The notes beneath the pieces were generated by a model that made no database searches, was not told where the DNA came from, and saw only the letters and a list, made by a program, of their open reading frames with translations. Source: a virus. From it: a DNA stretch of 24,398 bases. The DNA is taken from positions 1 through 24,398 of IMG/VR virus record IMGVR_UViG_3300012979_000023; one strand, written 5' to 3'. A program made the translations under genes and the position numbers. The stretch's first letter is position 1. Each line of letters opens with the position of its first letter. Positions 12,847 through 15,688 of the stretch are shown in pieces.

Positions 12847-13314
12847 TCATTTATTATAAAAAATATTAATTGATGTGGCTTTATATACATTTAATGAAAA
12901 ATTTAACGTTAAAGTCATATCTTCATAAGTAGCAGAGGTAAAATATTTACCAGAAGAGTAAGAATTACTTGTATTTTGATATACTACATTAATTCCGGTT
13001 CCATCATAATAAAGAACCAGAGGGTATCGAACCGCACTTATGTTCAAACCGGAACTATCGTTCGCACATACCATTAAAGCCATAAAAGGCGTATCAGCAG
13101 AAGGTAAATAATCTTCTAAATACCAACTAATAGTAGCACTGCCTACATCACCACGAGTAAGTTGTAGATATTCTAATTCGCCTCCGCCAGTAGTCAAATT
13201 AGAAATTGCCGTAGCCATATTTAATGGAGCAATAAGCCCAGTCTCTCCGGTTTTAGAACGAATAGCATCACCAATAGAAGTTAGAGTGCTTTCTTCAATA
13301 AATACTTTACTCAT
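12847..13314 (-). CDS. Fibre-associated protein 2 (155 aa), sharing the N-terminal 'IGDAIR-KTG' motif with the 381-aa LRR protein
   Basis: 'LTSIGDAIRSKTGETGLIAPLNMATAISNLTTGGG' aligns with '[34 protein letters not shown]' of the 13823-14968 product. The start codon overlaps the stop of the collagen-like gene (TAATG). Confidence 0.7.
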   Translation of the reverse strand: MSKVFIEESTLTSIGDAIRSKTGETGLIAPLNMATAISNLTTGGGELEYLQLTRGDVGSATISWYLEDYLPSADTPFMALMVCANDSSGLNISAVRYPLVLYYDGTGINVVYQNTSNSYSSGKYFTSATYEDMTLTLNFSLNVYKATSINIFYNK

Positions 13315-13808
13315 TAATAAGCACCCTCCTCTGCGACGCCAATAGCGGATAGAGAAGCATCAATCATAGCCTGAATTTCAGTTGCGGTTTTAAATTGTGA
13401 AACATCAGGAATTTGGATTTCTGCTTTTACCTCATTAACTAAATCTTGCTTTTCGGATTCCGTCCAATAATCTACGCCCTTGACGGGGGCTGGTCCGGTT
13501 AATCCCTGGGGTCCCTCTGGACCCGTTGGTCCTTGAATTCCTTCCGGTCCTCTTTCCCCTTGGGGACCCTGTGGTCCCATTTCGCCCTGCGGTCCTTGTG
13601 GTCCTATCGGTCCCGCAGGTCCAGTTAAACCGATAGGTCCTTGTTCCCCCGGCATACCTTGAAGACCCTGTATTCCTTGGTCTCCTTTGGGACCTTGCGG
13701 TCCTATTGAACCCTGTGGTCCCGCAGGACCTTCTGGACCCTGGGCACCCATAATGGTCATAATTTCCTGCCATTCATTGGAGGCATTCTTAAATTTTAAA
13801 ACACTCAT
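13314..13808 (-). CDS. Collagen-like repeat protein 2 (164 aa; 29 uninterrupted G-X-Y triplets)
   Basis: G-X-Y run '[25 protein letters not shown]...GPQGLTGPA', followed by '[18 protein letters not shown]...[10 protein letters not shown]'. The DNA shows GGN-CCN periodicity at 13490-13745. Confidence 0.9.
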
Positions 13809-13822
13809 TTAGGCATCCTCCT

Positions 13823-14968
13823 TTATACTAATGTAATAGTCCAACCTTTATTGGTCGCGACTGCGATTTCTTCTTCGGTTAATGTATTTATTGCCCCGCC
13901 ATCTGTTTTAGAGCCTGCTCTGCCACTAAACTTAATAGTATTAGTTCCACCAGCGGTTGCTAAATAAGCGGAAGTATCAGGTAAAGAATTAATAGTAGCA
14001 ACAGCACTATCGTGGTTATAACGAGAATAGGCTATATCTGTGGAAAACCAGTCTGGGTCATTTTTTAAGGCTTGATAAGTAGCGTCGTCTTTTACTTCTT
14101 TGTCTGCGGTAATTCCGCTATTATAATTTATACAACTACTGGATTTACTGCTATACCCTACATATTGTGTTAAATCTATGGTTTGTTTCTTCCATTTTAC
14201 ACTAACAGGACTTCCGTCTTCATTTTTAGCGAATGTAAAATTTTTAATGCGATGGCAATTAACAAAAGTCGAGTGAAATATATTCGCAGTCCTTGGTGTT
14301 GTATCAATAGCAACAACTGGCAAATCAACAACCTCGTCAAGAACAAAACAGTAAGAAAATAAAGAACTATAACAACAACCACTCTCATAAACACTGGGGT
14401 TGGTGTATTTTAACCATCCAAGAGGGCATTTGCGTAAAGAATAACAATATTGAAACATATAATTACATATTCCTGTATAAGTGCCGGTTAATTTATCCAT
14501 ATAACTAAAATCCCAAGAGTCAAAATAATCATCAGGGATTTCTCTTAAATTATAACAACCACAACATATATAAGAAAGAGAACTGGGACTTGCTCCTATA
14601 ATTTTAGGCAATTCTTTTAAATTCTCCGCATAATAAAACATATTTTTCATATCTATACCACTATAAGTGGGGTCAAAATTTAAATCAAAAGGAATTTTTT
14701 TACTCAAATTCTTATAAAACATATTATCCACATAACGCAACCCTTGTGTGGTTATTGTATCCCCAAATAAATCTATATAAGCGGACGAGACAGCCCCAGC
14801 ACACGCATAAGAAGCCTGGGAATCAATGACGATGGGCTCTACTTCTGCTCCTCCGCCACTAATACCCTTAATCTCTTCGGGCATCTGGTCCAGAGTTAGT
14901 AAATCTTCTTTTCCAGTCTTTTCTCTAATGGCATCGCCGATAGCAGATAACTTATTAATAAGAGCCAT
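13823..14968 (-). CDS. Leucine-rich-repeat protein, DUF285/BspA-like (381 aa from the ATG at 14968); candidate receptor-binding head
   Basis: Repeated Cys-rich units '[12 protein letters not shown]', '[23 protein letters not shown]', '[13 protein letters not shown]', '[15 protein letters not shown]' and '[13 protein letters not shown]', with a C-terminal '...[11 protein letters not shown]'. The track start at 14974 is a TTG; the ATG at 14968 has GGAG 9 nt upstream. Confidence 0.8.
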
Positions 14969-15359
14969 TTTCAATCACTCCTATCGCATCGTTAATCATT
15001 TGTTCCACCTCTGCGGAAGTAGGATAATTCACAGAAGGCTCGCCATTAGTGTCAATCCAAACATTAATAGAACTATCAGTGGGCTCATCCGTTCCTATAT
15101 AAACTCCACTTGGTCCAGGTTCGCCTTTTGGTCCCGTTGGTCCAATAGGACCTTGGGAGCCCATAGGACCTGCTACACCTTGCTTTCCTTCTGGTCCGGC
15201 AGGTCCAACCGGTCCTTGCTTGCCTTCTGGTCCTTGAATTCCCGGTTCGCCTTTTTCTCCCCGGGGTCCAACAGGACCACGATAAGTAGGATTAGCCATT
15301 TCAGCCTGGATAATTGGCTGTGCTTCTAAATTGGCTTTTAAATTATTAGTTTTAATCAT
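14955..15359 (-). CDS. Collagen-like repeat protein 1 (134 aa; 19 G-X-Y triplets)
   Basis: '[58 protein letters not shown]', then '[22 protein letters not shown]...VIENGSY'. It is a paralogue of the 13314-13808 product (shared C-terminal E-x-x-x-MI-D ... G-(S/A)-Y). Confidence 0.9.
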
Positions 15360-15688
15360 TAGTAAGACACGCCCCCAACTACTTTAAATTTCGCGGGACC
15401 GATTACGGTATCAACGCGTCCGTCTGCGGTATTAATTTGAATATCATAATAATAATCGCCAGGAGCAATATCAGTATCAGTTGAAGTAAGATGAATAAGA
15501 GCCTTATAATTGCTGAATTCAGTAATCTTTTTTTGTAGGATATATTCTTCTTTCTCTAACTCGTTATTAATAGTAAATAGGACTTCGTCGCCAGTATCCA
15601 GTAGATAGTTATCAAGAGCAAGAACAAAATCCGCAGTGTCTTTTGCTACAATCTTCATAGCCTTACTGTCTTTATCAAATACTAACAT
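15359..15688 (-). CDS. Small beta-sandwich (Ig-like) structural protein, 109 aa
   Basis: ORF with GGAGG RBS. The beta-rich pattern '[33 protein letters not shown]' is typical of Ig-like decoration/fibre-base domains; family not verified. Confidence 0.6.

Follow-up and report, generated by a model that had tools for sequence, protein, structure and literature searches.

What do two tandem gene pairs, each made up of a collagen-like gene and a second gene directly downstream of it, contribute to a small phage, and where on the particle would their products act? The pairs lie within positions 12,847–15,688 of a viral DNA of 24,398 nucleotides (IMG/VR record IMGVR_UViG_3300012979_000023, positions 1–24,398; "the window" below means this whole stretch). 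The reading that we favour, and consider probable, is that this interval encodes two tandem, separately encoded fibre assemblies, each with a collagen shaft and a distal head that carries a docking adaptor. The initial annotation of the window had proposed a stalk with a swappable head, and the comparative evidence supports this proposal well: an N-terminal adaptor is joined to unrelated distal domains, adaptor genes lie next to fibre genes, and a close relative of the window, L013, shows a telling pattern of change.

All genes of the cassette and of the virion module are on the minus strand, and every open reading frame (ORF) was found where the initial annotation had put it. The gene for the first collagen-like protein, stalk 1 (14955–15359, minus strand), encodes 134 aa: a 27-aa N-terminus, 20 G-X-Y triplets (aa 28–87; 19 had been counted before) and a 47-aa C-terminal part. 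Stalk 2 (13314–13808, minus strand) is 164 aa long and consists of a 20-aa N-terminus, 29 triplets (aa 21–107), the number originally given, and a 57-aa C-terminal part. Both G-X-Y runs are uninterrupted, and both proteins scored above the 27.2-bit cut-off of the Pfam Collagen family (PF01391), with 38.9 bits (E = 7.5e-10) for stalk 1 and 55.3 bits (E = 5.5e-15) for stalk 2. Judging from the regularity of the repeats and their proline content, the stalks should form trimeric triple helices. The C-terminus that follows the repeats is short and non-collagenous, with an amphipathic helix, acidic or glycine residues and a terminal Tyr, and contains no binding domain. The C-termini of the two stalks are alike, as had been noticed, and align through "...MI.(D)A...AIGV.E.G.Y".

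The second gene of pair 1 encodes head 1 (381 aa; 13823–14968, minus strand), which starts at an ATG with an in-frame TTG two codons upstream. Its adaptor (aa 1–45, nt 14834–14968, minus strand) is followed by a GGG linker, a variable solenoid resembling leucine-rich repeats (LRRs; ~aa 46–285) and a conserved C-terminal region (aa 286–381). The AlphaFold2 model, with a predicted local distance difference test (pLDDT) score of 94.2, has helices at residues 2–18 and 29–35 and then the solenoid. The initial annotation had called this protein DUF285/BspA-like. DUF285 (PF03382) gave no match at E ≤ 0.1, and at the sequence level the BspA-like LRR assignment fell below threshold, since Pfam LRR_5 (PF13306) matched with 13.7 bits (E = 0.061) against a cut-off of 27.7 bits. 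The fold itself was supported by the AlphaFold2 model and by its Foldseek neighbours: the best matches in BFVD were phage BspA-family LRR surface proteins (E = 2e-7 to 1e-3, at low TM-scores of 0.2–0.4), and those in PDB were weak LRR matches of the Toll-like receptor type (E ≥ 0.03). More than 5,500 homologues of head 1 were found; in this family the central solenoid is variable and the last ~95 residues are highly conserved. A scan of IMG/VR with the 381-aa head returned distant LRR proteins only, at 22–27% identity.

Head 2 (155 aa; 12847–13314, minus strand) is built on the same plan, with an adaptor (aa 1–45, nt 13180–13314, minus strand), a GGG linker and a small beta-sandwich (aa 47–154). 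Its AlphaFold2 model (pLDDT 85.7) has helices at residues 8–22 and 30–38 followed by nine strands, and comparison of the fold with PDB gave no significant match, only weak generic beta-sandwich ones. Apart from the sub-threshold LRR_5 match of head 1, neither head matched a Pfam family at E ≤ 0.1. By inspection of the sequence, the head N-termini do not look like signal peptides.

The N-termini of the two heads had been described as sharing a motif, and they do align, with 17 identities in 38 positions (E = 5e-8). The common element is a 45-residue helix-loop-helix with the pattern L..IGDAIR.KTG....L....M...I. A profile built from 49 N-terminal residues matched 15,358 clusters at E ≤ 1e-3 among the 1.84 billion representatives searched, and 1,585 clusters at E ≤ 1e-10. 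This spread indicates that the motif is shared far beyond chance. In 149 of the 150 best matches the aligned region began at residue 1, and the proteins ranged in length from 54 to 669 aa. Relatives of head 2 were 55–82% identical over the first ~45 residues and had unrelated distal parts. The distal domains of adaptor-bearing proteins included small beta domains, LRR_5, PKD, Flg_new (the Listeria-Bacteroides repeat) and DUF6273, and three such heads (P0166, P0202 and P0286) passed the LRR_5 threshold with 70–106 bits. Searches of Pfam, NCBIfam and PHROGs gave no match to the adaptor, and literature searches found no description of the module, nor of a bare collagen protein and a separate head joined by it. 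The module is probably an undescribed plug-in form of modular phage fibre.

Four proteins (P0286, P0202, P0278 and P0166) have two tandem N-terminal adaptors, or a duplicated adaptor-plus-LRR unit, a hint that a single head may engage two sites. In six relatives (L029, L039, L040, L041, L051 and L082), the standard genetic code breaks the TerL, portal and capsid genes into fragments. Reading TAG as a sense codon raised the long-ORF content of these loci three- to six-fold, which suggests TAG-recoded phages, and the apparent 37-aa adaptor ORFs of L029, L039 and L040 may be artefacts of this recoding.

We examined the genes upstream of the adaptor genes in 66 metagenome loci and 11 genome loci fetched via the motif, which were dereplicated to 52 adaptor genes with upstream sequence. 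In 47 of the 52, an upstream ORF ended between –14 and +62 nt from the adaptor gene; 32 of these overlapped it, the overlap being one base in 21 cases and 14 nt in 11. Of the five exceptions, two were start-codon miscalls that do have an upstream partner. Collagen-like proteins made up 21 of the 47 partners, and the others were up to about 1,300 aa long. When nine long partners outside the collagen class were searched against PHROGs, "tail fibre" families matched L044 and L061, which are long non-collagen partners, and L054, which contains collagen; the other six gave no such match.

The partners also had a characteristic end. The last residue was Tyr or Phe in 42 of the 47 partners, compared to 18% of 806 background ORFs, and in 2 of 49 and 10 of 249 heads in the two sets of heads counted. 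Serial proteins ending in ...EEVSY/F and other links of fibre cassettes carry the aromatic end as well. These data fit a rule by which every link that is followed by another has an aromatic last residue, and the terminal head lacks one. The ...SY end of the 109-aa protein encoded upstream of stalk 1, to which the initial annotation had drawn attention, fits this wider rule for non-terminal links of the cassette. Both heads of the window show all four features of the module: an adaptor at the extreme N-terminus, a glycine-rich linker, a gene that directly follows that of a fibre, and Tyr or Phe as the last residue of this fibre. We considered whether the terminal Tyr is a by-product of TAATG coupling and rejected this, because unrelated overlapping pairs (e.g. 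portal and MuF) mostly lack it, the aromatic residue is kept at non-overlapping junctions with stop and start apart, and both TAT and TAC codons are used.

Comparison with L013 localized the change within the cassette. The TerL, portal, scaffold, capsid, gp6-like, 100-aa, 109-aa, 72-aa and 69-aa proteins of the two genomes are 94–99% identical. The stalk ends are near-identical (87–100% per 15-residue block), and the adaptors show no difference over their first 30 residues. Further on, from residue ~45 of each head, identity falls to 27–60%, and the number of G-X-Y triplets changes from 20 in the window to 52 in L013 for stalk 1 and from 29 to 11 for stalk 2. The initial annotation had suggested looking for head-domain swapping at this locus in related genomes; in this comparison, change in the cassette was confined to repeat number and distal heads. 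An exchangeable tip for host recognition, mounted on an adjustable spacer, would be expected to leave such a signature. Two genes adjoining the cassette also diverge between the two genomes: the gp10-like protein (12092–12613, minus strand) is 35% and the tail terminator (11466–11867, minus strand) 55% identical to its L013 counterpart, with flanks at 94–99%. This divergence points to mosaic exchange at the head-tail joining genes.

The pair junctions overlap as the initial annotation had described, by 14 nt in pair 1 and as TAATG in pair 2. At junction 1 (14955–14982, minus strand), the Shine-Dalgarno sequence AGGAGTG (14976–14982) lies within the stalk codons for I-G-V, and the head ATG (14966–14968) and the stalk stop (14955–14957) bound an overlap of 14 nt (14955–14968). 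This layout recurs in 11 dereplicated loci. At junction 2 (13312–13331, minus strand), the Shine-Dalgarno sequence GAGGAGGG (13324–13331) encodes A-E-E-G of the stalk tail, and the stalk TAA (13314–13316) and the head ATG (13312–13314) share one base, 13314; this layout recurs in 21 dereplicated loci. Where the overlap is one base, the codons for A-E-E-G double as the Shine-Dalgarno sequence of the head gene, GAGGAGG; where it is 14 nt, GGAGTG or GGGGT comes from the G-V codons, and the last five stalk codons serve also as the first codons of the head. Since Shine-Dalgarno and start codons are inside the stalk tail, part of the tail conservation is at the nucleotide level. The shared C-terminus of the stalks is real, as first proposed, but part of the likeness comes from the ribosome-binding site and start of the head gene. 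The apparent co-variation between ...IENGSY and MAL(I/T)(N/D), too, is entirely at the nucleotide level, as the codons that close the stalk gene also open the head gene.

These constraints are among the points that weigh against docking of the adaptor on the stalk end. The last 6–8 stalk residues are held by the Shine-Dalgarno sequence and start codons of the head gene, which inflates the apparent protein conservation. Apart from its last residues, the stalk tail had a mean identity of 21% across loci, against a background of 18%; for the adaptor, the value was 48%. Tail and adaptor distances were correlated (r = 0.22, significant in a Mantel test), but not above the correlation between adaptor and distal head (r = 0.23). 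A profile search found no solved PDB structure that contains the adaptor, and no cultured phage with the module was found by blastn of the region and tblastn of the adaptor (INPHARED).

A programmed frameshift that fuses stalk and head was judged unlikely. The two junction types differ in frame offset, and the head ATG with its own Shine-Dalgarno sequence is conserved. No slippery heptamer was seen at the two junctions of the window, and no fused stalk-head protein occurred among the representatives examined.

With these points weighed, two-part fibres with exchangeable heads remain the reading that we prefer. The collagen-like protein would trimerize into a triple-helical shaft, and the downstream gene, translationally coupled to the shaft gene, would make the distal head. 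From the comparison of sequences we infer physical docking of the adaptor on the stalk end, most likely as a cap at the C-terminus of the shaft trimer. This would make the head an exchangeable tip of the virion that binds the host or a ligand, with a reach set by the number of collagen repeats. The aromatic-ended 109-aa protein would serve as the proximal link or anchor of fibre 1.

This 109-aa protein is encoded by the first gene of the cassette (15359–15688, minus strand) and ends in ...GGVSY; its gene overlaps that of stalk 1 as TAATG (15357–15361). For this protein, labelled Ig-like in the initial annotation, the single family match was PHROG 1084, of unknown function (E = 5e-8). No Pfam family matched at E ≤ 0.1, profile searches found no relative in PDB, and tblastn against INPHARED phages gave nothing useful. 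The protein has hundreds of unannotated relatives. All were 109 aa long among the 120 matches listed, and many lay on contigs of 24–27 kb. Close relatives end in GGV[SK]Y and distant ones in ...EEVTF. Larger, distant phages (L037 and L058/L065) also have a homologue encoded ahead of the fibre and head genes. The 109-aa protein is a possible anchor or first link of fibre 1. A relationship to the N-terminal domain of the fibres encoded between TerL and portal in another lineage was rejected (hhalign probability 0.1). Sequence and profile searches gave no meaningful PDB match for the heads, the 109-aa protein, the adaptor or this fibre N-terminal domain.

Two more small proteins accompany the cassette. 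A 72-aa protein (12617–12835, minus strand) with an N-terminal transmembrane helix and a coiled coil matches PHROG 1863, of unknown function (E = 1.3e-10), and is always encoded downstream of the 155-type head in close relatives (L013, L016 and L018). In prophage relatives, coiled-coil and transmembrane proteins that look XhlA-like by eye are encoded downstream of the cassette. The 72-aa protein is possibly lysis-related and could be the only holin-like gene product of the genome. A 69-aa protein (11869–12078, minus strand), outside the interval first annotated, had no Pfam or PHROG match. BLASTP and jackhmmer found similar ORFs 10–14 nt downstream of the head gene in nine loci (L015, L017, L022, L025, L026, L027, L034, L038 and L052). 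From this distribution, the protein may be a third component of the cassette, e.g. an assembly factor, displaced in this genome. In prophages, other families of small proteins (53–82 aa) fill the corresponding slot.

An exact 123-nt direct repeat at the ends of the window (1–123 = 24276–24398) indicates a closed assembly with a unit length of 24,275 bp. The phage is a small siphovirus-like phage of gut anaerobes. Its gene order begins with TerS, TerL, portal, MuF-like, scaffold, major capsid protein, gp6-like adaptor and a 100-aa ORF. The cassette follows, with the genes for the 109-aa protein, the 134-aa collagen-like protein, the 381-aa head, the 164-aa collagen-like protein, the 155-aa head and the 72-aa membrane protein. 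After it come gp10-like/Neck1, the 69-aa ORF, the tail terminator, the tube protein and a 171-aa ORF, and the module ends with a 2,844-aa ORF in tape-measure position, a short Dit and a 339-aa Tal-like protein. The 100-aa ORF, the head-closure gene of the initial annotation, matched no Pfam or PHROG family and owes this role to its position. The cassette sits in the late operon, in which internal promoter or terminator signals were not above chance. Virion and packaging genes make up almost the entire genome, and the contigs of its relatives cluster at 24–27 kb. The remaining 2.5 kb contain small ORFs (with HTH-like (helix-turn-helix) and HNH-like features judged by eye) and a 212-aa ORF; no polymerase, integrase, holin or endolysin was recognized among the ORFs of the closed genome.

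Other features of the genome were seen along the way. A strong terminator-like hairpin (16319–16349, minus strand; 14-bp stem and T-run) lies between the major capsid gene and the gp6-like gene, a pattern typical of attenuation downstream of a highly expressed capsid gene. A 196-aa ORF with HNH/NUMOD-like motifs by eye runs across the circular junction (23860–24275 joined to 1–175, minus strand), and beside it is a 57-aa ORF (194–367, minus strand) with HTH-like sequence by eye. The 2,844-aa ORF (1849–10383, minus strand) takes up 35% of the genome, in tape-measure position after the 171-aa ORF; L013 has a 65-aa gene between its 171-aa ORF and the corresponding giant ORF. The giant protein had no Pfam match and only a weak PHROG amidase match (aa 2007–2077). 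Some relatives encode a protein of only 592–688 aa there, which aligns with just the first ~180 residues of the giant protein. Fusion of a Dit N-terminal domain to the giant ORF was rejected, as no similarity was detected.

The initial annotation had regarded the cassette as a second binding system besides a giant tail-tip protein. The giant ORF sits in tape-measure position, and a second system is doubtful, since no separate fibre or receptor-binding gene was recognized outside the cassette in the closed 24.3-kb genome and the Tal-like protein is short. For the same reasons, the heads of the cassette may be the main host-recognition proteins of the phage.

Where on the virion would the fibres be attached? 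The neck or collar site deduced earlier from gene order is not supported, as the cassette occupies four or more genomic positions among relatives. In the window and its closest relatives (L013, L016, L019–21, L023, L033, L035, L048 and L053), it lies between the post-adaptor gene, here the 100-aa ORF, and the gp10-like gene for tail completion; in another lineage (L015, L017, L022, L025–28, L034, L052, L064, L076 and L092), it lies between TerL and portal. In L084, an Olsenella genome, it is found between the major tail protein and the tape-measure chaperones, and in L083 and L085–87, which are 49–218 kb genome contigs from metagenome-assembled genomes of Clostridia and Acutalibacteraceae, directly before small coiled-coil/transmembrane ORFs, putative holins and endolysin. 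With a position that varies in this way, gene order is not informative on the virion site. Whiskers at the head-tail connector, acting as ancillary binders in the manner of the lactococcal neck passage structure (NPS), are a possibility that we hold only tentatively. The first two positions would suit them: the cassette persists in the head-neck half of the small genomes, where it never comes after Tal, and it has a separate 109-aa first gene. The fibres of the TerL-portal lineage begin with a conserved ~100-aa domain followed by a predicted coiled coil, and the lactococcal NPS at the connector follows the same logic, with a beta-sandwich as anchor, a trimeric fibre and a variable tip that binds carbohydrate (PMC6669499). 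Against whiskers, the prophage relatives carry the cassette before the lysis genes or between the major tail protein and the tape-measure chaperones, sequence methods found no BppU-like N-terminal domain in the 109-aa protein or the fibre N-termini, and it would be odd for merely ancillary fibres that no other receptor-binding protein was recognized in the genome. To our knowledge, the NPS gene of TP901-1 itself lies outside the neck module. Side fibres at the tail tip (baseplate), serving as principal receptor-binding proteins with genes displaced into the head-neck region of a compact genome, are a plausible alternative, though one to which we would still not commit. The larger prophage relatives (Clostridia, Oscillospiraceae and Acutalibacteraceae) have the pair at the usual tail-fibre site before the lysis genes, and in L037 and L065 it adjoins endolysins. 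Tal is reduced to a 339-aa core, Dit is short, and the diversification of the heads resembles that of receptor-binding proteins. The "tail fibre" PHROG matches of the partners in L044, L061 and L054 point the same way, but on collagen-like proteins such labels reflect composition and not localization. Moreover, no docking domain for Dit or Tal was detectable, and the 24–27 kb lineage never has cassette genes beside Dit or Tal. The capsid or some other site accounts for the remaining probability.

Whether the downstream proteins are permanent tips at all can also be asked. As fibre-assembly chaperones of the Tfa or T4 gp38 type they would equally be encoded directly downstream of, and translationally coupled to, the fibre gene; some adaptor proteins are short, and assembly chaperones also join a conserved part to a variable part. 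We consider this unlikely. The collagen stalks have no receptor-binding domain that would need folding, and the heads bear large domains typical of binding (LRR_5, PKD and Flg_new) and, in the window, matched no Pfam family of chaperones or others beyond the sub-threshold LRR_5. Between the window and L013 the distal heads differ by 40–70%, and the stalk ends are near-identical, so the variable part does not track the fibre. The small protein related to the 69-aa protein, which often follows the head, is a better chaperone candidate. More improbable still, to the point that we give it very little credence, is a moron that encodes adhesins of the host surface or secreted adhesins and not parts of the virion. 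Collagen-like and BspA-type LRR proteins are classic bacterial surface adhesins, and NCBIfam showed similarity to the Scl and Lcl adhesins, but these matches were far under the cut-offs and confined to the G-X-Y repeats. Inspection of the sequences revealed no signal peptide, LPXTG motif or lipobox, the cassette lies inside the late structural operon, is coupled within it and has no separate promoter or terminator, and no integrase was recognized in the closed genome.

How, then, would two-part fibres of this kind relate to known systems? Functionally, the closest parallel would be the gp37-gp38 pair of T2/T6-type phages, in which the fibre is capped by a separate adhesin whose N-terminal attachment domain is conserved and whose specificity domain can be exchanged (PMC3157838). 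As with gp38 of T2, T6 and S16, the adhesin gene follows the fibre gene directly. Unlike gp38, the heads have no glycine-rich motifs alternating with hypervariable segments but an LRR solenoid or a beta-sandwich, and no sequence relationship exists; the shaft here can be a bare collagen triple helix, and attachment of the head is deduced from the genes. The hosts also differ, being enterobacteria for the gp38 type and apparently mainly Firmicutes here. The NPS of lactococcal 936 and P335 phages, the model nearest to the idea of the initial annotation, has a conserved proximal part, a trimeric shaft and variable distal modules, and is ancillary, non-essential and located at the connector (PMC6669499). 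A single polypeptide, however, holds all its parts: an N-terminal beta-sandwich resembling BppU, a coiled coil and a carbohydrate-binding module resembling BppA. The cassette uses up to three separate genes and a collagen shaft. Profiles of the 109-aa protein and the fibre N-terminus, used in search of a BppU-like domain of the NPS type, found no baseplate or collar protein in PDB at E ≤ 10 by sequence methods.

In TP901-1 and Tuc2009, the N-terminal helical stem of the receptor-binding protein docks in the C-terminal part of a separate holder, BppU, and heads are exchangeable. BppU belongs to the baseplate ring and has a globular C-terminal domain, whereas the holder here ends in ~25 residues of helix and an aromatic residue, and no homology of BppU-BppL to the cassette proteins was detected. 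The cassette thus has the docking logic in common with TP901-1 BppU-BppL and the NPS, but not the parts. Collagen-like stretches are common in phage fibres. Known collagen-like phage proteins include the SPP1 gp12 capsid decoration, the PRD1 P5 spike, antireceptors of Streptococcus thermophilus phages and fibres of E. coli prophages, and G-X-Y segments in phage virion proteins are trimeric spacers with variable repeat number. In these examples, the segment is part of a protein with its own terminal domain or of a capsid binder of 64 aa; the collagen proteins of the cassette lack a distal domain and are paired with a separately encoded head. The products of the genes for Tfa (lambda), U (Mu) and G (P2), each directly downstream of a fibre gene, bind the C-terminal end of the fibre. 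Tfa is a small chaperone whose variable part matches the receptor-binding tip of the fibre; here, in contrast, the heads vary in a large, independent binding domain, and the end of the fibre is conserved. We found no Pfam match of the heads to a family of the Tfa/Caudo_TAP type, and their variability was uncoupled from the stalk ends in the comparison with L013.

A broader proposal, which we regard as speculative and rather doubtful at present, is that the adaptor and the aromatic end constitute a general plug-and-socket code for multi-gene fibres in phages of gut Firmicutes. Each non-terminal link, be it the 109-aa anchor, a collagen shaft or a shaft of another type, would carry a C-terminal plug of acidic or glycine residues and then Tyr or Phe, to be received by the N-terminal module of the protein encoded next. 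With the IGDAIR adaptor as a socket of almost universal fit, any head could be mounted on any shaft. Genomes with two cassettes use two junction subtypes, ...IENGSY with MAL... and ...AEEGAY with MSKVF..., which under such a code would keep the two fibres orthogonal.

The cassette draws attention to an abundant, unannotated lineage of siphovirus-like phages, with genomes of 24–27 kb that consist of virion genes almost throughout. If the adaptor is a docking module, it would provide a sequence rule, namely an N-terminal IGDAIRxKTG module encoded directly after a gene whose product ends in Tyr or Phe, to find receptor-binding proteins in thousands of uncultured gut and rumen phages, in which such proteins are almost never annotated. 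It would also offer a natural point, near residue 45 of the head, at which heads could be swapped to engineer host range, and would add to the known fibres an architecture in which a bare collagen triple helix serves as an adjustable spacer only.

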